DNA from: Spirochaetia bacterium
GTDB lineage: Bacteria > Spirochaetota > Spirochaetia > UBA9216
Direction: 5' to 3'
Length of the DNA: 64,000 nucleotides
Assembly (NCBI GenBank): GCA_963675665.1
Contig: OY776510.1
Coordinates: forward strand, 416,001-480,000
The notes under the pieces are model-generated. The model searched no databases, was not told the DNA's origin, and was given only the letters and a program-made list of their open reading frames with translations. Below are positions 1 through 62,754 of this stretch, piece by piece (positions within the stretch are counted from its first letter, which is position 1; each line of letters starts with the position of its first letter). Made by a program: the position numbers and the translations under genes.

Positions 1-517
1 TTGCACACGCCGCAAAAGCATCCAGATCAAGGACCTGCATTGTCGGGTTCGCCATAGTTTCCGCATAGAGGACTTTCGTATTCGGACGCATTGCCTTGTC
101 GATGACATCGTCTGAAAAGTCTTCGACAAAAGTGACGTCTATCTTTAATTCTTCAAAGATCATTGTGAATAGTTTGAAAGAACCGCTGTAGATGGTTTTA
201 TAAGCGATGATATGGTCACCGGACTGGGCGGCATTCAGCACCGCCAGCGAAATGGCTGCCATTCCCGACGCTGTTACCAGACAACGCTCAGCGTTTTCAA
301 GACTTGCAATCTTGGCCTGAAGATCATTCTGTGTCGGGTTGCGCGAACGGCCGTAGGTATAAATTCCTTCCTTGTCCCCTGAAAGATAACGTTCCCGGGT
401 CTCGGGGTCCCAGCAGAATGTGCTTGTCATGTGCATGGGAGCAAGCAACGCCCCTGTCGCCGGATCAATCTTCTGTCCGGCATGTACAGCTTTTGTTCCA
501 AATTTCATATTTTCCAA
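1..517 (-). CDS. Cys/Met metabolism PLP-dependent enzyme (cystathionine gamma-synthase/methionine gamma-lyase family), truncated by window edge
   Basis: Manual translation (not in ORF track): MKFGTKAVHAGQ..P.HMTSTF..YGRSRNPT..LENAE..ASGMAAI..ETMANP; TTG at 517 (or ATG 508) after GAGGA. Confidence 0.88.
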   Translation of the reverse strand, partial: MENMKFGTKAVHAGQKIDPATGALLAPMHMTSTFCWDPETRERYLSGDKEGIYTYGRSRNPTQNDLQAKIASLENAERCLVTASGMAAISLAVLNAAQSGDHIIAYKTIYSGSFKLFTMIFEELKIDVTFVEDFSDDVIDKAMRPNTKVLYAETMANPTMQVLDLDAFAACA

Positions 518-52774: not shown

Positions 52775-54109
52775 TTAATACAGACCGTATTCTTTAATTT
52801 TATTGAACAGGGTTTTACGATCAATACCCAGTTCTTCAGCAGCTTTTATCTTTTTACCTTCCCATCGTGCAAGACTTTCCCGAATCATCTCTTTTTCCAT
52901 GTCCCTCAAGGTTCCGCGGCTTTTTAAAGTATGATGATTTGAAGATGGTTGTTCCAAACCGGAACCGAGAGAAAAATCAGCGGACTGCAGTTCATTTCTT
53001 TCCGACAAAATAAAGGCCCGTTCAATCAGGTTCTCCAATTCACGAATATTTCCCGGAAAGCGATACGCCTTCAGCATGTCCATAGCATCGGAAGAAATCC
53101 CGCTGATTGCCCTTCCCATACGATTATTCATTACGGAGATAAATGTACCGCATAACAGCGGCATGTCTTCAGATCTTTCCCTGAGCGGAGGAAGATGAAT
53201 CCTTACAACATTCAGTCTGTAAAACAGGTCTTCCCGGAATTTTCCAGTCTTTACGTCTTCTTCTATGGGTCTGTTGGTAGCGGCAATTATCCTTACGTCG
53301 AGTTTGATCTGTTTAACCGAACCGAGCCGCTGAACCGAACGCTCCTGTATGGCCCTGAGAAGCTTTACCTGAAGATGAACCGGCATATCGCCGATTTCAT
53401 CCAGAAAAATCGTTCCGCCGGAGGCCGCCTCAAAAAGTCCTGTTTTCATTCTCTCAGCCCCTGTAAAAGCCCCTTTTTCATGCCCGAAAAGTTCACTTTC
53501 AAGAAGGGTTTCAGGAATACTGCCGACATTTACCGGAACAAACGGGCTGTCGGCTCTTTCCGACCTGCCGTGGATAAACCGTGCAAAGACCTCTTTTCCC
53601 GTCCCGCTTTCCCCGGTTATCAGGACATTGGATTGCGTCGGTGCTGCCTTTTCCGCCAGAGTTATTATTCTGTTCATTTCCGAATTGTTACTTTCAAGTT
53701 TAAACCCTCTGCCGCTGAGGTTCCGCAACCGAAAAACTTCCTGCTGAAGCCGTTTTTTTTCACCGGCCTTTATTATCTTTAATTTTAGCTCTTCTGTTTC
53801 AAATGGCTTTGTAAGATAATCTTCTGCACCCAGTTTCATGGCTTCAACTGCATCAGCTACATCACCGTAGGCTGAAATCATTATAACCGGGAGTTTAAGA
53901 TCTTCCTTTTCAAGCCGACGGAGAACTTCCAGCCCGTCCGCTCCCGGCATTTTGAGATCCATAACAAGAACATCAAAAACTTCTTCTGAAAGCAGCCTTA
54001 GTGCCGACAAACCGTTTTCGGCCGTTCTGACCTCGAATCCGTCAATCGTCAGATACTCAACTATTGATTCCCTTATTCCTTTTTCATCATCAGCTATGAG
54101 TACTCTCAT
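52775..54109 (-). CDS. Sigma54-dependent NtrC/ZraR-type response regulator
   Basis: REC domain (DD, D.KMP), GESGTGKE, ESELFGHEKGAFTGA, FLDEI, Fis HTH. Confidence 0.95.
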   Translation of the reverse strand: MRVLIADDEKGIRESIVEYLTIDGFEVRTAENGLSALRLLSEEVFDVLVMDLKMPGADGLEVLRRLEKEDLKLPVIMISAYGDVADAVEAMKLGAEDYLTKPFETEELKLKIIKAGEKKRLQQEVFRLRNLSGRGFKLESNNSEMNRIITLAEKAAPTQSNVLITGESGTGKEVFARFIHGRSERADSPFVPVNVGSIPETLLESELFGHEKGAFTGAERMKTGLFEAASGGTIFLDEIGDMPVHLQVKLLRAIQERSVQRLGSVKQIKLDVRIIAATNRPIEEDVKTGKFREDLFYRLNVVRIHLPPLRERSEDMPLLCGTFISVMNNRMGRAISGISSDAMDMLKAYRFPGNIRELENLIERAFILSERNELQSADFSLGSGLEQPSSNHHTLKSRGTLRDMEKEMIRESLARWEGKKIKAAEELGIDRKTLFNKIKEYGLY

Positions 54110-55380
54110 GTTTCTCTCCGGAAGAAAAGCTCCGCTTCCGCCCCGCCTTCTTTCCTGTTGTTTATTTTTACCGAACCGCCTGCAGCCTCCGTTAAACGCT
54201 TTACAACCGACAGCCCCAAACCCGTACCGCTGTTTTTGGTTGTGAAAAAAGGATCAAACATTCTCCTCAGGGCTTCCTCTGTAAATCCTGCACCGTTATC
54301 CGTCACCGAAAGCAGTATTCCGCGGCTCACTTCTGTAACCGCGATCCCGGCAGCGCCTGCGCTTTCTACGGCATTATTCACAATGTTATCGAGTACGGTT
54401 CGTAATCTTTCCCTGTCGAAATAAATACAAGCCGCAGAATCAGGAATGCTGAATACTATTTCATTACGGCTGCCGTATAATTCAGTAACAAAGCGGCCAA
54501 GATCAATTTTCTCCGGTTTACCAACCGGGTTTCGCAGAAATTCCCCAACCCTGTCGACCAGCAGATTAAGCCTTTTAAGTTCACGATCAATAATATCCAG
54601 ATTTGTTTCGTAACCCGGCGGAAGCTTCTTTACAAGAAGATCACGCTGTATTTTTAATGCACCCAGGGGATTTCTAATCTCATGGGCAAGAGTTCTGGCC
54701 GCCTCGCCAAGCTGAATAAGCTGTCTGTCATGCTCCGTTTTCTCTATCAGCCGTCTGTTGGATCGGTATAAACGAAACAAAAAGAATGCAGCAACAGAAA
54801 AAAGCGTGATAAAAAGAATAATCAGAAGAATAATCAACCGTCGTTCAGAAATATAACCGCTGTTAAGATATTCAATATAGATTCCCACCTGATATTTTCG
54901 AAGCATCGGCGCCAACGGCTGTCGCTGATCCCTGTCATCCCTGAGTTCCTGCAGCCTCCGCTGCATATTGGGCGGCATTCTCTGCATCATTGACTCAGCT
55001 CCGCGTAAAACGGCAGCATCATCCGGCAGTGTTCTTATAACAACTATACTGCGACGACCGGCCATAATCACTTCGTTATTGCGGCCCGCTGCATCAGGCA
55101 GCCGCAAGGGTGCACTCCCGTATCTTTTCAGAGAATTATTATCTGCTCCGTATATTCCGAAACCTGTTATATTTTCATCTATTTGAGAAGGGTCGTTCAG
55201 CTGATCATTTACCTGAAGATCAAGAAGCAGGTCAATAAGCCGGGAGGCCTTGTATTCCAGCATCAGTGCATTATTTGACTGTTTCTGGTCTATAAGCATT
55301 ACAAGAAGAATTATAAAAATAATAAAAACAGCTGAAACCGGAAGCAAAATCACTCCCGGCTTCATTTTAATTGGTTTCAT
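54106..55380 (-). CDS. Membrane sensor histidine kinase (ZraS-like)
   Basis: 2 TM; AHEIRNPL, N box, DNG.G, FDPFFTTK, GTGLGL. Confidence 0.92.
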   Translation of the reverse strand: MKPIKMKPGVILLPVSAVFIIFIILLVMLIDQKQSNNALMLEYKASRLIDLLLDLQVNDQLNDPSQIDENITGFGIYGADNNSLKRYGSAPLRLPDAAGRNNEVIMAGRRSIVVIRTLPDDAAVLRGAESMMQRMPPNMQRRLQELRDDRDQRQPLAPMLRKYQVGIYIEYLNSGYISERRLIILLIILFITLFSVAAFFLFRLYRSNRRLIEKTEHDRQLIQLGEAARTLAHEIRNPLGALKIQRDLLVKKLPPGYETNLDIIDRELKRLNLLVDRVGEFLRNPVGKPEKIDLGRFVTELYGSRNEIVFSIPDSAACIYFDRERLRTVLDNIVNNAVESAGAAGIAVTEVSRGILLSVTDNGAGFTEEALRRMFDPFFTTKNSGTGLGLSVVKRLTEAAGGSVKINNRKEGGAEAELFFRRET

Positions 55381-55427
55381 TCTTTGTTTAAGATACTATA
55401 AACCTGTAATTATTGCCATTAAGAACT

Positions 55428-56000
55428 CTAAAAAGGTCTCTGCCTGCCGTCCGCTTTTCCACCATACATTCGGTTGTCGTCCCGGCTGCTCATTCCGCCC
55501 CGACCGAACATTCCGTCTTTATCGGCCATTCTTCCGAATCCGGTTTCGTTATCCACCCACGGCAGCTGATATGTGGTACCGTCAATTTCTACAGATTCCA
55601 CAAGCAGCTCTATATTTCCTTCAAGCGCCTCAAGATCGAACATCCTTCCCCGCCCCCCGGGCCCTGCCGCAGGTCCGGCATTCCATGGCATGGTCTCTTC
55701 ATCAACAATATAACCTTTAACTGTGATTTTATCTCCTTCGCTGACATAATCATAAAAAGCCATTGCTCCGGGGGCAATCAGAGTATAACTCTTACCGCCG
55801 GCAACCAGTTCCGGAACGGGAGATTCAAACTTTACCGTACCGGTTACCTCTGCCTGCTCAAGGTCTTCAAGATAACTGTTTCTTGCAAGCTCCCTGGGCT
55901 GCAGTTTAACCACACCGTCTTCATCTGCTTCCTGCGCGCCTGTCGCAAATACTGTCGCAGCAGCTGCAGACATGCATAAAATTAAAAATATTTTCTTCAT
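55428..56000 (-). CDS. Secreted accessory protein with Gly/Arg/Met-rich segments
   Basis: Signal peptide MKKIFLILC..VFA; RBS AGGAG; first gene of the sensor/regulator run. Confidence 0.72.
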   Translation of the reverse strand: MKKIFLILCMSAAAATVFATGAQEADEDGVVKLQPRELARNSYLEDLEQAEVTGTVKFESPVPELVAGGKSYTLIAPGAMAFYDYVSEGDKITVKGYIVDEETMPWNAGPAAGPGGRGRMFDLEALEGNIELLVESVEIDGTTYQLPWVDNETGFGRMADKDGMFGRGGMSSRDDNRMYGGKADGRQRPF

Positions 56001-56062
56001 TTTTTGCTCCTATAAAAAGTCAACCACAAGCTAAAAATATAAGCTTATGATCTGGTCGGATA

Positions 56063-57175
56063 TCAACCGACCATTACAGCTTCCCATGCTGCTGCCTGCA
56101 TTTCCCTGTATTCTTTTCTAAAAGCCATTTTCATCGGATCAAACGGCTCTCTGGTTTTTAAAATTGTATATACCAAAGTGCTCATCTTGCGGGCGGCAGC
56201 TATTACACTCTTACCCGAGCCTTTCTGCTTCTTCATCGCTGCATACTTCGTCATTATTCGGTACGTCCCGGTCTTCTTTTGCATACGAACCATTCCCATC
56301 ACCATCTGTACGAAGGCTGTCCTCAGTTCTACAGGCCCACGCTTTGTTATATGTCCATGATGTATTGTCATATTTGAGTTCTGCACCCATGGCACAAGCC
56401 CGGCGTTTGCTGCATATTTCTTCGCACTATCATATCTGCCGATATCGTCTGTATAGGCTCTTACTGTTGCTGCTGTTATTAGACCCACGCCTGGTATTGT
56501 CTGCAGAAGCTCAACATCTTCATCGTCCTCCACAAGCTCAGCCAAAACCTTTTCAAGCTGCTTGACTTGCGATGCCTGATTATCTATCATATCCAGTAAC
56601 GGTATTACCGTTTTGGCAGCGCTTCCGTAAAAGTCGTGGTCCTCGAGACCGTTCAGGATTCGCTGCCTTTCTTTTTTACTCTGCAGCTGTCCGCGTTTGG
56701 TCTCTATTCCATAACCAAGTAATAAGCCATGCACCTGGTTCTTTAACGACACAACAGATTTTACCAGTATCGACCTGGATTTCAGCACCCTTCGAATATC
56801 CTCACTCTCTTGGGAACATAATATCGATTCAGGCAGCATGTCTTTCTCAAGAAACTCCGCCAGGGTGCGTGCATCATGTTTGTCTGTCTTTTTTACAGAT
56901 TCATTCACTACCTTGAATTTCAAAGTATTCACTACAACCACTTCGACTCCAGCCTTTAACAGTTTATTGCGGAAATAACGGGCATTCCCGGTTGTTTCCA
57001 CCGCTGCTCTCAACTCATATTCCTCTTCACAATATTCATCCAGCATTTTCAGAAATGCTCCATAACCATTTCCGCTGGTCGGATACATTCCCAATTGATC
57101 AATTTTTCGGTCTTCACTTAAAAGGCATACTGTAAACTGCGTTTTGTGAAGATCCACGCCAATACTCATCTTCAT
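56063..57175 (-). CDS. IS110-family DEDD recombinase/transposase
   Basis: IGVDLHK, VETT, KTDKHDA (DEDD RuvC); IPGVG, GLVP...S, I.KRG, AARK. Confidence 0.95.
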   Translation of the reverse strand: MKMSIGVDLHKTQFTVCLLSEDRKIDQLGMYPTSGNGYGAFLKMLDEYCEEEYELRAAVETTGNARYFRNKLLKAGVEVVVVNTLKFKVVNESVKKTDKHDARTLAEFLEKDMLPESILCSQESEDIRRVLKSRSILVKSVVSLKNQVHGLLLGYGIETKRGQLQSKKERQRILNGLEDHDFYGSAAKTVIPLLDMIDNQASQVKQLEKVLAELVEDDEDVELLQTIPGVGLITAATVRAYTDDIGRYDSAKKYAANAGLVPWVQNSNMTIHHGHITKRGPVELRTAFVQMVMGMVRMQKKTGTYRIMTKYAAMKKQKGSGKSVIAAARKMSTLVYTILKTREPFDPMKMAFRKEYREMQAAAWEAVMVG

Positions 57176-57210
57176 GTTCTATCTCCAATAGTTTGAAGCA
57201 GTGCCTATAC

Positions 57211-57363
57211 GGTGAATTGTTCCATTCTCCTATCCGGTCTCGCAGACCATTGAATGTTTCGGTTACGGCTCTTCAATCTCCTAAACGGTCTCGCGGACCA
57301 GTAAAAATGTCGAACAGTAACCTTACTGCCTCAATTAAAGTTAAGGCAGTATATCAATTCACC
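57211..57363 (-). ncRNA. Putative bridge RNA (seekRNA) of the IS110 element
   Basis: Outer stem GGTGAATTG/CAATTCACC, 5' hairpin, two repeated internal loops capped by GGTC-YGCGA-GACC whose strands match the target and donor junctions. Confidence 0.75.
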
Positions 57364-57414
57364 AGCTCATGAAGACTTTTTATCATTCCTCCTAAAAAGT
57401 TGTTACTTTTATAA

Positions 57415-57430
57415 AGCAATATGCATACCA
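57415..57430 (-). promoter_or_regulatory. Sigma54 -24/-12 promoter
   Basis: TGGTATGCATATTGCT (GG-N10-GC). Confidence 0.78.
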
Positions 57431-57509
57431 AAAAAATATTGAAAAAGAGGATTTATTGGGTATTTTTTAGAGATTTAACAGTGAATTTAAGGATTTCAAA
57501 ATGCCTCCC

Positions 57510-57552
57510 GGGGCAATTTTCCCCATCATAGAATTCAGAGGATTTTTGCCCC
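57510..57552. promoter_or_regulatory. Paired upstream activator sites for an NtrC-family protein
   Basis: GGGGCAATTTTCCCC and GAGGATTTTTGCCCC, 80-120 bp upstream of the -24 box and separated from it by an AT-rich spacer. Confidence 0.58.
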
Positions 57553-57599
57553 GAAGATTGCAGAACCCGTGCTTAAAAAGCAACAGGCCCGGTGCAGGT

Positions 57600-58043
57600 T
57601 TAAATTACTGATTCAGATTCAACGGTATCCGGTGAAGATGAATATGCAAGCTCTTCATCAGTAATCTCATCAGCTTCTGTATCACCGCCGTTTTCGGTTC
57701 TGAAATCTTCCTTACCGAATGTCGGCCTTTTCTCAATATACTCTGCTACGAGTTTTAACCTTGATCTCGGATTTCCTTCCCTGTCTTCCCAGCGGTCCTG
57801 TTTTAATCTTCCTACTATACGGACTCCCTTGCCTTTGGAGAAATTGTTCTCACTGTAGGTTGCAAGCCTCGTCCATGCTTCAATATCCAGAAACGTCACT
57901 TCTTTCTGGTATTCATCATCCTGTTTATAATAACGGTTTGATGCCACGGTAAAGTTACAAACCTTCGTACCTTTAGGCGTTTCACTTAGAATCGGATCTC
58001 TGACAAGATTTCCTTCAATTATTACTGAGTTAACAGAATTCAT
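57600..58043 (-). CDS. ssb: Single-stranded DNA-binding protein
   Basis: N.V.IEGNLVRDP, F.VASNR, F.D..AW, KG..V..VGRL.QDRW. Confidence 0.92.
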   Translation of the reverse strand: MNSVNSVIIEGNLVRDPILSETPKGTKVCNFTVASNRYYKQDDEYQKEVTFLDIEAWTRLATYSENNFSKGKGVRIVGRLKQDRWEDREGNPRSRLKLVAEYIEKRPTFGKEDFRTENGGDTEADEITDEELAYSSSPDTVESESVI

Positions 58044-58310
58044 TTTAATACCTCTTTAGTTTTCTCTGTCCCGGAACTGTTTATATATAAGGAATAATCT
58101 TCTTTTTTCCTGATGCTTTAATAAATCAGACACTTCATGTTGCAAATTTTGCACCGATAACCTGCTTGATCGTTGCCGTTTCATGGATTATGATGAGATA
58201 AACGCGTGCTTCCACGTACACGTTTCTCTTGAAGTTTGCATCGCAGCGCTTTTCAAATTTCAATATGTTAACTCACCGTCCAGGGTGAGCCTCTAATGAA
58301 GGAGAAAGAA

Positions 58311-59402
58311 ATGGCAAAAGGATTTTCACTTGAAACGTACCCATGGGCATATCTTGCGCAATACGATAAAGAAACTGAATGGCGTGAGGAATACATCGAA
58401 AATCCGCATAAAACCCCGAAGGAAGAAGCGGACCTTCCCGCCGATGAGTTTGCGGCACTGCTTCAGAAGAGAAATTCGTTTCCCGGGCTTCCGCTTGTTA
58501 ATTATACAACACAATACGGCATGGGCTGCTTTGAAGGCCTAAAGGCATATCCGCAAAAGGACGGCTCTCTAAAATTATTCCGACCGGATGAAAATGCCGC
58601 CAGGATGTTTAAATCAATGAAGGGATTGATGATGCCTCCATTCCCGGAAAAAATGTTTCTTGAAGCATCAAAAACCGTAGTTAAAAAGAATATGGCCTGC
58701 GGCTTTGCGCCTGAATATGATTCGGAGTGGGAAAAGGATAATTATATTACTGGACATGCAGTGTACCTGAGACCGTTTACGTATTCGGAACCGGCGATAG
58801 GCCTGGGCGTATCAAATCGTCCATGGGTAGTAATTGTTGCAACACCTGTCGGAGCATATTTCGCGCCGGGGAATTCCAAAGCCGTCGTCACAGATAAAGC
58901 CAGAGCAACTCCCAACGGCACAGGCTGGATAAAATGCAATGCGAATTATGTTATTCCCATTCTTGCAAAGAAAGAAGCAGTAAACGCCGGATATATGGAA
59001 GCTATTTTTCTTGATTCCGTTGAAAAAAAATATGTTGAAGAAGGTTCATCATGCAACATATTTTTCAAACTAAAAGACGGCACACTGATTACTCCGGAGC
59101 TCGGCGATACAATACTGCCCGGAATAAACAGAAAGAGCGTAATAGAACTTGCCGGGGATATGGGAACAAAAGTCGAAGAAAGAAAAGTCCCCATTGCGGA
59201 GGTTATGGAAAAAGCTGACGAATGCTTTGTTACCGGAACAGCCGCAGGAGTTTCATATATCGAATCCATCACTTTAAAGGGAAAAACCCTAGTCCTCAAC
59301 AAAGGTGTACAGGGAGAACTCACGACTGAACTTCAAAAAACGCTTAAAAAGATACAGTACGGAGCTATAGAAGACACAAAAGGATGGATGTTCGGACTTT
59401 AA
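58311..59402 (+). CDS. ilvE: Branched-chain amino acid aminotransferase (class IV PLP)
   Basis: YG..CFEGLKAY, LFRP..N..R, YLRP, K..ANY, EE..S.N.F, ILPGI.R, GTAA; ATG 58311 after AGGAG. Confidence 0.93.
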   Translation: MAKGFSLETYPWAYLAQYDKETEWREEYIENPHKTPKEEADLPADEFAALLQKRNSFPGLPLVNYTTQYGMGCFEGLKAYPQKDGSLKLFRPDENAARMFKSMKGLMMPPFPEKMFLEASKTVVKKNMACGFAPEYDSEWEKDNYITGHAVYLRPFTYSEPAIGLGVSNRPWVVIVATPVGAYFAPGNSKAVVTDKARATPNGTGWIKCNANYVIPILAKKEAVNAGYMEAIFLDSVEKKYVEEGSSCNIFFKLKDGTLITPELGDTILPGINRKSVIELAGDMGTKVEERKVPIAEVMEKADECFVTGTAAGVSYIESITLKGKTLVLNKGVQGELTTELQKTLKKIQYGAIEDTKGWMFGL

Positions 59403-59406
59403 GACT

Positions 59407-62400
59407 TTACAAACTCAGCCTTGAAAGGTCCTTGGGAATATCCTGATATATCTGCAGCCGGTAATCTTCGACCGGATAAAATACCGCCCGTGAATTCAAA
59501 TATGAAAGATTAACCGTATCCGGCTCTACAAGCGAGTTCGGATCACGGGAAAGTTTATCGTAATATTCAACCGAATCGGTAAGAAGCACCATTGCTTCCG
59601 CATTTTTTTCCGGTTCACGGCTTCTCTCATACAGACGGTATTTGGTAACTCCCAGGTTATTGCTTACCTTCATCATATTCTCAAGCAGGGCCCGATGCTC
59701 CGGAATCTCATCAATAAGCAGGTAATTAATTGACGAATATTCTTTACTGAGCAAATCAAGAAGATGTGTATAGTATCCCTCAGCAAGATAATAATCGTTT
59801 CGGTTGAACAGAGTATTGGCTGTTGAGTACATCAAAGCCCTGTCTACGGAAAACCCGCCGGCTGTATCATAAAACTCGATCAAAGCCTCTCTATAATTCT
59901 TGTTATAATACTGTATATAACCTTTTTTGTATTTCAATATCTCGGAAGAATATTCATTCAGTTCGGCTTTGGTATAATACTCAAGCGCCAGGTCATAATC
60001 TCCGCTGATATAATACGATAAATCTCCCAGGTTGGAAAAAATCATGCCGAATTCAGGTTTCGGCTGTATCTGCCTGTTGGCTATTGCTTCATCATACCGT
60101 TCGGCCGCTTTCTGATAAAACTCTTCGGCATCCAGATAATTCTCCTGTTCATACAGGATCATCCCTTTACGGTTATACGAATCGATCAGTAAACCGTTTC
60201 GGGTGCGGGTCAGCGGGTCTGTATTTTCAAAAAGCCAGATTGCTGCATTAAGCGCTTTCTCTTCCTCTTCCGGAATGTTGATAATACCAAAATAACGGGC
60301 AAGTTCATAATGTATTTCCGGAAGTTCCGCCTCTACAGAACGTGCTTTCATCAGGATCTCTCTTACATCCTCAAAACGGCCGCTGTCAATCAGATATCCT
60401 GCCAGTTCGGCATAAATGTCCGGCTCAATATCCGCTTTCGCATTCTGTTTAAAAGCATCATAAAGATTCATTGCTTCAGTATGGTTATCTGTTCTGATAA
60501 AATACCGCAACATTCTGAACAGAATCTCATCTCTGCCGCCGTACAGTTCAAGCAGCTTGGCATAATTAAATCTTGCCTCTTCATATCGTGATGGATCAAT
60601 TTCCCTTGCCCATTCCATATAGGTATCACCGAGCATCAGACGGGCTTCATAATCATTAAGGTGATCAAAAAGTAAATCAGTTAAAAGCTTTTCAGCTTCC
60701 GGATACTTGCCTAGAATCTTAAATTCCAGTTCGGCATAATCCAGCACAGCCTCGCGTTCATCCGGGTACCAGCCGAGCAGCTGCTCGTATTTTTCTTCGG
60801 CAAGAAGATATTGTTTATTATCTTCAAATGATTCTGCATATCTGTAAAACCAGTTTTTCTTTTTCCATTCACTGAATGCACGTTCGAAATATGAGTTGGC
60901 CTGTTCGTTGTTTCCCTGCGGAATTTCTTCATAGCCTTTTTTATATAGCGATTCAGCGTGCAGAGGGGTATATACAAACCGATACCCTAAAAACAATAAT
61001 AGCATCAGGGAAGCCGCTGCTATCAATGCTGTTCTGAACATCGGTATAAAGTTTTTTCTGAACATATAGCTGAAGGAACTCTTTTCTTTCTCGAATTCCT
61101 CAGCGGTGCGCTTTTCATACTGCGCCGGGATTTTTACCTTCTTTCCGGTTATTTTCGATACGACATTCCCAATTTCTCTTGCGCTGGAACCGGAAGTCAT
61201 CGCCTCAATGAGTTTATCCAGATTTTCACCGGTAAGCCGCTTTTCTCCTATCAGCTCCTCAATTATGAGCTTGAGATTCCGAGGCATTTGACCAAGAGTC
61301 TTTTTAAGTTCTATAAACTCATCATCGGGAATGGCGTAACTTTCATCGGAATACGCATCGTCAAAATCACCGCTTTCATCCGCAGAAGGAACATCAAGAC
61401 TTTCAAGATGCCCCATGTCTTCAGCAGGTTCTTCATCTACTCCGAATTCCTGCCCCAGATCTCCGAGACTGAACTCTGAAGCTTCAATATCATCGCCGTC
61501 TATCTCTCCTAGACTGAAATCTTCAAGACTGAATTCATCCTCTCCGGAGTCATCGGAACTTTCCATATCGGAGCCGAAGTCGCCGACCTCGGATTCACCG
61601 AGTTCATCCATGTCGGTGTCGAAGCCGGCCGTGTCGAGCTCACCGGCATCAGGTTCGCCCAGGTCATCCATGTCGGCGTCGAATTCGCCGGTGTCGAAGT
61701 CAGCCGTGTCCAGCTCTCCGAGGTCATCCATGTCGGTGTCGAAACCGGCCGTGTCGAGTTCACCGGCATCAGGTTCGCTCAGATCATCCATGTCGGCTTC
61801 GAATTCGCCGGTATCGAAGTCAGCCGTGTCCAGCTCTCCGAGGTCATCCATGTCTGTGTCGAAGCCGGTCGTGTCTATCTCACCGGCATCAGGTTCGCCC
61901 AGGTCATCCATATCGGCGTCGAATTCGCCGGTGTCGAAGTCAGCCGTGTCCAGCTCTCCGAGGTCATCCATGTCGGTGTCGAAGCCGGTCGTGTCGAGCT
62001 CACCGGCATCAGGTTCGCCCAGGTCATCCATGTCGGCTTCGAATTCGCCGGTATCGAAGTCGGCCGTGTCCAGCTCTCCGAGGTCATCCATGTCTGTGTC
62101 GAAACCGGCCGTGTCGAGTTCACCGGCATCAGGTTCGCCCAGGTCATCCATGTCGGCGTCGAATTCGCCGGTATCGAAGTCAGCCGTGTCGAGTTCATCA
62201 GCATCAGGTTCGCCCAGGTCATCCATGTCGACGTCAAAATCGCCGGTATCGAAGCCGGTCGTGTCTATCTCACCGGCATCAGGTTCGCCCAGGTCATCCA
62301 TGTCGGCTTCGAATTCGCCGGTATCGAAGCCGGTCGTGTCGAGTTCATCGGCATCAGTAATCTCTTCACCAGAACTTTCAAGATCAAACGAATCAAGATC

Positions 62401-62754
62401 CGCATCGAAACCTTCCGCTTCCAGGGCATCCATCTCTTCGAATTGATCCCCGGAAGAGGATTCTTCTGCAAGCTCTTCGTCGAGCCCCGAAAGTAATTCT
62501 TCAGGAAGATTATAATCGCCCTCAAATTCATCCGGTTCAGCTTCTGAATCTGTCGGCTCCTCGGCAAAAAGGGATGATTCTTCCAGAACATCTGTATCAT
62601 CCTCATCGAAAAGCGCACTCAAATCTCCGATCGATTCAGCTTCAGGCGGAGTAATATCCGGCATAACTTCACCGCGCTGTCTGCGTATCTCCTCTTCGTT
62701 GCCGAGACGAGTCAGATCTGTCTTAAAATCGTCTATTTCTTGAATCTGGGGCAT
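59407..62754 (-). CDS. flcA: Spirochaetal flagellar collar protein FlcA-like (acidic N-terminus, TM, TPR periplasmic domain)
   Basis: MP....F...L..LGNE...R..RGE start, P.NLK..IEE motif, single TM, TPR array; recognised from family memory, not searched. Confidence 0.72.
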   Translation of the reverse strand: MPQIQEIDDFKTDLTRLGNEEEIRRQRGEVMPDITPPEAESIGDLSALFDEDDTDVLEESSLFAEEPTDSEAEPDEFEGDYNLPEELLSGLDEELAEESSSGDQFEEMDALEAEGFDADLDSFDLESSGEEITDADELDTTGFDTGEFEADMDDLGEPDAGEIDTTGFDTGDFDVDMDDLGEPDADELDTADFDTGEFDADMDDLGEPDAGELDTAGFDTDMDDLGELDTADFDTGEFEADMDDLGEPDAGELDTTGFDTDMDDLGELDTADFDTGEFDADMDDLGEPDAGEIDTTGFDTDMDDLGELDTADFDTGEFEADMDDLSEPDAGELDTAGFDTDMDDLGELDTADFDTGEFDADMDDLGEPDAGELDTAGFDTDMDELGESEVGDFGSDMESSDDSGEDEFSLEDFSLGEIDGDDIEASEFSLGDLGQEFGVDEEPAEDMGHLESLDVPSADESGDFDDAYSDESYAIPDDEFIELKKTLGQMPRNLKLIIEELIGEKRLTGENLDKLIEAMTSGSSAREIGNVVSKITGKKVKIPAQYEKRTAEEFEKEKSSFSYMFRKNFIPMFRTALIAAASLMLLLFLGYRFVYTPLHAESLYKKGYEEIPQGNNEQANSYFERAFSEWKKKNWFYRYAESFEDNKQYLLAEEKYEQLLGWYPDEREAVLDYAELEFKILGKYPEAEKLLTDLLFDHLNDYEARLMLGDTYMEWAREIDPSRYEEARFNYAKLLELYGGRDEILFRMLRYFIRTDNHTEAMNLYDAFKQNAKADIEPDIYAELAGYLIDSGRFEDVREILMKARSVEAELPEIHYELARYFGIINIPEEEEKALNAAIWLFENTDPLTRTRNGLLIDSYNRKGMILYEQENYLDAEEFYQKAAERYDEAIANRQIQPKPEFGMIFSNLGDLSYYISGDYDLALEYYTKAELNEYSSEILKYKKGYIQYYNKNYREALIEFYDTAGGFSVDRALMYSTANTLFNRNDYYLAEGYYTHLLDLLSKEYSSINYLLIDEIPEHRALLENMMKVSNNLGVTKYRLYERSREPEKNAEAMVLLTDSVEYYDKLSRDPNSLVEPDTVNLSYLNSRAVFYPVEDYRLQIYQDIPKDLSRLSL
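61605..62350. repeat. Intragenic tandem repeat: about 4.75 x 120 bp (two alternating 60-bp subunits) plus about 2 x 75 bp
   Basis: Encodes (DMDDLGEPDAGELDTAGFDT DMDDLGELDTADFDTGEFEA)n. Confidence 0.95.

Follow-up and report, generated by a model that had tools for sequence, protein, structure and literature searches.

An IS110-family element at translation-initiation sites of a Spirochaetia bacterium, with a bridge RNA that probably reads the Shine-Dalgarno sequence and the start codon

The stretch of DNA analyzed here (the window) comprises 64,000 nucleotides (nt) of the genome of a Spirochaetia bacterium (GenBank assembly GCA_963675665.1, contig OY776510.1, positions 416,001 to 480,000 of the forward strand). 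At positions 56007-57388 of the window, on the minus strand, lies an insertion sequence (IS) of the IS110 family, which measures 1382 base pairs (bp) when one copy of the core is counted and which is inserted in the initiation region of a small host gene. We consider it likely that this is an active bridge-recombinase element whose guide RNA recognizes two universal marks of translation initiation, the Shine-Dalgarno sequence and the start codon, and which inserts in the sense orientation and rebuilds the ribosome-binding site (RBS).

Anatomy of the element and its host locus

Along the minus strand from 57430 to 55998, the locus consists of a promoter (TGGTATGCATATTGCT), 21 nt, AGGAG, the 1382-bp insertion, CAAAAA, and the ATG of an open reading frame (ORF) of 190 amino acids (aa). 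The insertion starts with GAATGATAAAAAGTC and ends with TTGACTTTTTATAGGAG. On the gene (minus) strand, the left junction is formed by ...CAACTTTTTAGGAG followed by GAATGATAAAAAGTC..., with GGAG at 57392-57389, and the right junction by ...TTGACTTTTTATAGGAG followed by CAAAAAATGAAG..., with GGAG at 56010-56007 and the ATG at 56000-55998; the crossover may lie anywhere in the AGGAG common to both junctions. The left half of the target, TTTTTAGGAG (57389..57398, minus strand), is the host Shine-Dalgarno sequence and carries the core AG at 57390-57389; it was delimited by aligning the junctions of 15 copies of the element and is the same as the 3' arm of the target loop described below. The initiation region of the host gene is rebuilt as TATAGGAG-CAAAAA-ATG (55998..56014, minus strand). 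The boundaries seen in the 15 copies coincide with loose ends of contigs from four public DNA runs (at 55997-56007 and 57391-57398), and the element behaved as a collapsed repeat in public runs, with a word depth of about 230-400 vs. about 25-28 in the flanks (X1, X2). Overall, the anatomy of the element is demonstrated.

The recombinase gene (56063..57175, minus strand) encodes 370 aa and matched entries in Pfam, NCBIfam, and PDB. Both domains of the IS110 family were found, namely the N-terminal DEDD RuvC-like domain (DEDD_Tnp_IS110, PF01548, residues 5-155, 9.3e-18) and the C-terminal Tnp domain (Transposase_20, PF02371, residues 222-303, 1.4e-17). The NCBIfam model NF033542, "IS110 family RNA-guided transposase", scored 216.8 bits against a cut-off of 140, and the nearest PDB matches were the transposases of ISCro4 (E 7e-16) and IS621 (E 6e-15). 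The right end (56007..56062, minus strand) contains a -35-like TTGACT at 56023-56018 and the terminal TATAGGAG at 56014-56007, which doubles as left-donor site and new Shine-Dalgarno sequence.

The left end (57176..57388, minus strand) is predicted from its folds to be the bridge RNA gene, with a 5' stem-loop and with target and donor loops set within a long-range helix; its first bases, GAATGATAAAAAG, represent the right-donor site together with a -10-like box. As a single sequence, these 213 nt upstream of the recombinase gene folded better than all 200 shuffles (z = -4.3). A consensus fold of 30 sequences (its own and 29 relatives) comprised 33 pairs, 17 of which showed compensatory changes, and took the shape of a long-range helix that surrounds a 5' stem-loop and a pair of internal loops; a short GGTC...GACC hairpin caps each of these loops. 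This predicted fold is the published bridge-RNA architecture; a search of 55000-58500, the bridge-RNA region included, gave no Rfam family match at E<=1.

The second, donor-binding loop (57218..57260, minus strand) matches the two ends of the element itself. Its 5' arm, CATTC (57256-57252), is the complement of the first five bases of the element, GAATG, and its 3' arm, ATAGGAG (57233-57227), equals the last seven bases. In relatives of the element, described in the next section, all five pairs between the 5' arm and the own left end were kept in 113 of the 119 with both parts readable, through at least seven compensating pair types such as CGTGC/GCACG, CATAC/GTATG, and CGTTC/GAACG. The donor-loop arms therefore not only match but also covary with the ends, as was looked for in a member of the IS110 family.

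These features are shared with IS621 and other IS110 bridge-RNA elements as described in the accessible parts of PMC11208160 and PMC11208158: a recombinase of the DEDD/serine family, a left-end RNA with a 5' stem-loop and target and donor loops, loops that each read one strand per side of a CT core, and no target duplication. For a promoter rebuilt across the joined ends, as in IS621, the candidate here is TTGACT-17-TAAAAA, in which TTGACT of the right end and TAAAAA of the left end, both conserved among relatives, would be separated by 17 bp (base count) once the ends are joined. In the IS621 frame, in which the 5' arm reads the left target, the plus strand of the window shows the customary CT core, and the genes lie on the opposite strand from those of IS621, so that the element is sense to the host gene.

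The host gene (55428..56000, minus strand) encodes a protein with a signal-peptide-like N-terminus and no family match, and downstream of it lie genes for a histidine kinase (54106-55380) and a sigma-54-dependent response regulator (52775-54109). Promoters of the sigma-54 type follow a known consensus, by which we called TGGTAT-N5-TTGCT at 57415..57430 (minus strand) as the host promoter. Four orthologous loci (G001, G004, G008, and G010) contain no insertion and show TGGCAC-N5-(T/C/A)TGCT/AGCT approximately 22 nt before AGGAG-N6-ATG; identity in the host gene reaches only 66-68% even in the nearest genomes, and the comparison is thus one of orthologous architecture. These uninterrupted loci, together with the downstream kinase and sigma-54 activator, support both the promoter call and the inferred architecture of the empty site. 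The original prediction had placed the element 20-25 bp downstream of a host sigma-54 promoter; the promoter is upheld by the orthologous loci, and the distance requires correction, since TTGC ends 27 nt upstream of the insertion point. As a side observation, a sigma-54 promoter in region 52775-56000 with loci L019-L022 precedes the genes for a small protein with a signal peptide, a histidine kinase, and a sigma-54 response regulator, and these three genes probably form a self-regulated module.

Insertion sites in the genome and among relatives

The assembly contains 15 near-identical copies of the element (99.6-100% identity, all 1382 bp long), which are young, as judged from this identity. 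In each of them the left flank ends with (A/T)(A/T)AGGAG, which appears as TATAGGAG in nine copies, TTTAGGAG in three, and TAAAGGAG, ATAAGGAG, and ATTAGGAG in one each. The right end, TATAGGAG, is followed by an ATG after a spacer of 6 nt in 12 copies, 5 nt in two, and 7 nt in one. All 15 ATGs open an ORF (93-729 aa) to which the recombinase is sense. Among unoccupied TWWAGGAG sites of the genome, 93 of 540 (17%) have an ATG at +5..7 and an ORF of at least 90 aa, and the same pattern was found at 611 of 6577 AGGAG sites (9%). At the background rate, the chance of finding it in 15 of 15 copies would be 0.172^15, or approximately 3e-12, and the junction pattern exceeds chance.

Relatives were collected in two scans, of species-representative genomes and of metagenomes, which gave 80 loci each with recombinases 32-88% identical. 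Those with approximately 52% recombinase identity or more share the ends of the element and reside in metagenome-assembled genomes (MAGs) of Spirochaetota and Desulfobacterota and in metagenomes (52-88%); assignments to Gracilibacteria, Dehalococcoidales, and Dysgonamonadaceae rest on short MAG contigs and are not trustworthy. Of the 132 right ends found, 128 carry GACTTTTTATAGGAG without any change, and an ATG lies 4-9 nt after GGAG in 96 of 111 distinct right flanks, with 2, 17, 47, 18, 10, and 2 flanks at spacers of 4, 5, 6, 7, 8, and 9 nt, respectively (mode 6). Two MAGs with megabase contigs carry several copies each: nine in a Syntrophales MAG, with left flanks AAAGGAG and guide CAAAGGAG, and ten in an Oceanispirochaeta MAG, with left flanks mostly TACAGGAG and guide TACAGGAG. 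Location between the Shine-Dalgarno sequence and the start codon, in one orientation, was thus observed in all 15 own copies and in 96 of 111 distinct flanks of relatives; this establishes the choice of site and the orientation, and it agrees with the earlier proposal that the element is aimed at such regions in co-orientation. In line with the proposal that insertion regenerates the host RBS, the right end puts AGGAG back at the original distance from the ATG in every copy.

Several left flanks of the IS consist of a hairpin followed by TTATAGGAG, which proved to be part of a family of miniature elements of approximately 100-125 bp (type copy G000:C1:3764695-3764802). These start like the IS (GAATGATAAAA, with GGAG before it), end like the IS (TTTTATAGGAG or ACAGGAG), and contain three hairpins. 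Of 38 miniature copies drawn from 101 BLAST hits, 27 are followed by an ATG within 3-10 nt, ten by another element, and one by neither, and tandem arrays of five, three, two, and two copies were found (1652333-1652891, 2973058-2973366, 836234-836447, and 4576529-4576751). Six of the 15 IS copies lie directly after a miniature, which indicates that a rebuilt site serves in turn as a target. Such repeated insertion is also suggested by two relatives: L083 (at about 2300-2380), where a duplicated right-end remnant shows two TGACTTTTTATAGGAG ends 30 nt apart, and L192, whose right flank runs into a second left end. The single supposed joint in the contigs of the four DNA runs, from 56026 to 57356 (six other letters, four mismatches) was rejected as an excision product, being a look-alike from a miniature element.

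The abundance of miniatures raises the question of whether their ends are the real target, much as REP repeats are the natural target of IS621, with RBSs being hit only because the repeats lie there. The six copies directly behind a miniature, and the nine of 15 left flanks that read TATAGGAG like the element's own end, speak for this. However, nine of the 15 copies are not beside a miniature, and start sites with TTTAGGAG and with TATAGGAG before ATG are equally occupied (three occupied and 12 free, and nine occupied and 35 free, respectively; 20% each), so that the high share of TATAGGAG at occupied sites is a matter of supply and not of preference. In addition, the 19 Syntrophales and Oceanispirochaeta copies have unrelated left flanks that end as their own guides specify (AAAGGAG and TACAGGAG). 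We regard targeting of miniature ends as highly improbable, and prefer the reading in which the initiation site itself is recognized.

Two of the 15 copies (G000:C1:1288538-1289945 and 1296999-1298390) are in direct orientation approximately 8.4 kb apart, apparently between genes of one operon, and could delete or circularize the intervening segment; by eye, the N-termini encoded behind this pair resemble a 2-oxoacid dehydrogenase E1 beta subunit and a dihydrolipoamide dehydrogenase.

Reading of the site by the target loop

The first, target-binding loop lies at 57261..57322 (minus strand). Its 5' arm, CATTTTTACT (57309-57300), is the complement of AG-TAAAA-ATG, and its 3' arm, TTTAGGAG (57285-57278), equals the Shine-Dalgarno strand. 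Reading both arms bore out the original prediction that they jointly specify TTTAGGAG plus TAAAAATG. The real site is TTTAGGAG plus CAAAAAATG, and the rebuilt site is TATAGGAGCAAAAAATG; the spacer portion of the guide, TAAAA, is a poor match to real sites.

One arm of the target loop contains NNNAGGAG and the opposite arm CAT-N6. A target loop was recovered from 119 of the 160 loci, and these amounted to 83 distinct loops. In 69 of these, CAT stands at a fixed place of the 5' arm and AGGAG is present in the 3' arm; in two, AGGAG is kept but CAT is displaced or mutated; CAT never occurs in the absence of AGGAG; and 12, mostly from termite-gut metagenomes, have neither. The 3' arms of these 12 re-aimed loops read CACGGAG, GGGGAG, GCAGAG, or GAGAG, and all 12 keep the conserved 3' extension A-N-(T/C)-G-R-R-G, which indicates that CAT is dispensable for folding of the RNA. 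The re-aimed subclade (L199, L203, L205, L207, L208, L211, L213, and L214, which are metagenome loci, mostly from termite gut) has the same element ends. Its flanks contain no nearby ATG and match the own 5' arm contiguously from the core, as in the flank of L205 against an arm of the GTCTGTGCAT type. The re-aimed elements, with arms CACGGAG, GCAGAG, and GGGGAG, were observed to sit in CACGGAG/CACAGAG-like repeats and provide a natural control.

We then compared guides with insertion flanks. In the three bases before AGGAG, guide and flank matched at 2.03 of 3 positions vs. 1.11 for permuted guides, a value that none of 2000 permutations reached, although these tests count related elements as independent; the match rate climbed toward AGGAG, at 32%, 76%, and 94% for the three variable positions. 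In the three bases before ATG, the match at the ATG-anchored offset was 0.49, 0.64, and 0.59 for spacers of 6, 7, and 8 nt, respectively, vs. 0.33-0.41 for permuted guides. The target-loop arms thus covary with the insertion flanks, strongly beside AGGAG and ATG and weakly in the spacer, in keeping with membership of the IS110 family. A strict IS621-like register, contiguous from the core, was unsupported for spacers of 6-8 nt, with no match at the core-anchored offset. What is recognized seems to be AGGAG with the two to three bases upstream of it and ATG with approximately three upstream bases, and the pairing appears to be anchored at the ATG, with two short anchors (xxAGGAG and xxxATG) and slack between them. 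In contrast to IS621, the arms here are fixed on AGGAG and ATG, and the spacer is variable and loosely read. The composition of the loops and the covariation of guide and flank, which the alignments demonstrate, confirm the expectation that the aiming is encoded in the bridge RNA.

Several points weigh against this interpretation. The contiguous match of the re-aimed relatives calibrates the register, by which CAT would strictly face ATG at a spacer of 5 nt; most sites have a spacer of 6 nt, and a bulge or slipped pairing must therefore be assumed. Complementarity in the spacer is weak, with about half of the positions matching, and the dependence among related elements reduces the force of the permutation tests. 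The right end TATAGGAG shows the same invariance among the 12 re-aimed relatives, and its conservation is thus not to be credited to RBS rebuilding alone. The association of six own copies with miniatures already at an RBS also counts here. Contigs from the four public DNA runs yielded neither a flank-to-flank contig (empty allele) nor a joined-ends circle junction, and no empty allele of the same species was seen, the closest comparison being the orthologous loci of four more distant species. Finally, resident insertions leave some room for survival bias.

This last point leads to the possibility that the guide reads the left half-site, xxAGGAG, only, and that the restriction to start sites and to the sense orientation arose from the loss of harmful insertions elsewhere. 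The weak pairing in the spacer and the ATG lying one base off the strict register in most sites would fit such half-site recognition, and recombination at half-matched sites has been reported for IS621 (in the accessible text of 10.64898/2026.08.31.748434). Against this stand the youth of the copies, all 15 of which are nevertheless at start sites vs. 17% expected; the retention of CAT in 69 of 71 distinct AGGAG-aimed loops and its absence from all 12 re-aimed ones; and the anchoring of the covariation at the ATG. Moreover, insertions in non-essential genes or at other intergenic AGGAG sites should have survived. We therefore regard recognition of the half-site alone as improbable and favor a guide that reads both the Shine-Dalgarno sequence and the start codon.

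Expression, precedents, and miniature derivatives

In the mechanism that we propose, the 3' arm of the target loop (NNN-AGGAG) would pair with the strand opposite the Shine-Dalgarno sequence and the 5' arm (CAT and approximately three further bases) with the start codon and the bases just upstream, the 5-8 nt between them being read loosely. The site of recombination would be the final AG of GGAG, CT on the opposite strand, while the donor loop would hold the joined ends of the element, TATAGGAG followed by GAATG. The inserted element would be co-directional with the host gene, with the host Shine-Dalgarno sequence now preceding the bridge-RNA gene, and its terminal TATAGGAG would take over 5-7 nt before the host ATG, whereby the host ORF would retain an RBS; the host gene is probably left working and still translated. 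The bridge RNA and recombinase of a resting copy may be made by read-through from the host promoter, here of the sigma-54 type, which the element may thus capture, and the TTGACT-17-TAAAAA promoter would arise in the joined-ends circle. A rebuilt site that is again a target would explain the stacking of elements, and ends that alone suffice as donor would explain the miniature derivatives at other RBSs.

The idea of expression from the host promoter is based on two observations. We found no terminator-like site within 55900-57650, and IS621 requires read-through transcription for excision, which is abolished by an upstream terminator (accessible text of PMC13626964). An element that always lands in sense just after a transcribed Shine-Dalgarno sequence would, by analogy, meet a read-through need of the IS621 type. 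Alternatively, targeting and rebuilding may be real and the benefit may lie merely in a neutral, universal landing site, with expression from the element's own weak promoter or from the junction promoter. The conservation of TTGACT-17-TAAAAA is in line with such neutrality, and so is the spread of the clade over at least two phyla, as expected for a universal target. On the other hand, a merely neutral site would not require the orientation to be always sense to the host gene, the read-through dependence of IS621 excision points to a role for upstream transcription, and the scan of 55900-57650 revealed no sigma-70-like site that would precede the bridge RNA of a resting copy on the element strand. 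We consider the neutral alternative unlikely, albeit worth keeping in view, and continue with the reading in which host transcription is used.

Insertion at start signals is not new for the IS110 family, because Doran 1997 and Inglis 2003, as cited in PMC2942039, reported that IS900 and IS901 of Mycobacterium avium insert in a single orientation between the Shine-Dalgarno sequence and the start codon. The IS900 target motif, CATGNNNNNNTCTCCTT, given in PMC8141618, is the same kind of site as CAT-N5-7-CTCCT here. IS900, however, has its transposase gene antisense to that of the host, and the host RBS is taken over by an antisense ORF named hed (PMC2942039). That arrangement is not found in the present element, in which the recombinase is sense in 15 of 15 copies, the longest opposite-strand ORF has 133 aa and no antisense ORF is full-length, and the element's own end supplies a new AGGAG. 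What distinguishes the present clade is the sense orientation, the use of its own end as a replacement Shine-Dalgarno sequence, and a guide RNA that shows how the site is read. The accessible parts of PMC2942039 and PMC8141618 offer no bridge-RNA explanation of IS900 targeting. ISPpu10, with its "sequence-structure dual-match" (as far as described in the accessible part of bioRxiv 10.64898/2026.03.19.712850), is likewise an IS110 element whose choice of site goes beyond one contiguous guide match; its extra determinant is a stem-loop in the target DNA, whereas here it would be a second, distal guide segment facing the start codon. We found no paper linking bridge RNAs to RBSs, subscription journals and ISfinder lying outside the coverage of the search, and the text-form supplements of PMC11208160, as far as accessible, contain neither end sequence of the clade.

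The 2024 bridge-RNA mechanism may offer a sequence-level explanation for the 1997 observation on IS900 and start signals, with sense insertion and a rebuilt RBS representing a different solution to the same problem. If our reading is true, the clade has a landing site before most genes in most bacteria, and a guide that is split and tolerant of distance would add a hitherto undescribed mode to bridge-RNA recognition. The universal target may explain the spread across phyla, and a guide that apparently accepts differing distances between its two short anchors bears on the off-target rules of bridge editors. For annotation, such insertions split operons without necessarily inactivating them.

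The miniatures suggest an identity for two orphan Rfam motifs. TD-1 and TD-2 were described from Treponema denticola as repeated structured motifs of unknown function (Weinberg 2007), TD-1 lying 5' of unrelated genes and overlapping the reverse complement of TD-2; in the accessible text of PMC1950547 they are candidate structured RNAs and not mobile elements, whereas the miniatures here share the ends of the IS. In our genome, with about 40 miniature derivatives, the TD-2 model (RF03162) matched the reverse strand of the miniatures, with 18 matches over the 48.7-bit gathering cut-off and 33 at E<=0.01, vs. none in 14 control genomes; the miniature next to the IS at G000:C1:3764695 scored 44.7 bits, just below the cut-off. 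Miniatures were present in all five other genomes of the genus that were searched, and no close recombinase copy was found in those five. Mobile DNA may in this way supply working RBSs of many host genes. Taken together, a wider reading may be drawn, which we hold tentatively and with slightly less than even confidence: a clade spanning at least two phyla, its guide fixed on the Shine-Dalgarno sequence and the start codon across a flexible spacer, would ride host transcription, supply a new Shine-Dalgarno sequence, and have spawned the TD-1/TD-2 miniatures that serve dozens of genes.

Two further features were noted. At 59407-62754 (minus strand), the window contains an ORF of 1115 aa, the first approximately 400 residues of which form an extended array of highly acidic repeats (DTxGFDTGEFDADMDDLGEPDAGEL-like); a membrane segment and TPR-like sequence come next. 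The same genome also harbors a second, unrelated IS110-family element in at least seven copies, with a recombinase approximately 23% identical to that described here, at G000:C1:554254, 2046753, 2621717, 2819077, 3725667, 4982017, and 5030971 (387-aa frames) and at 4457074.

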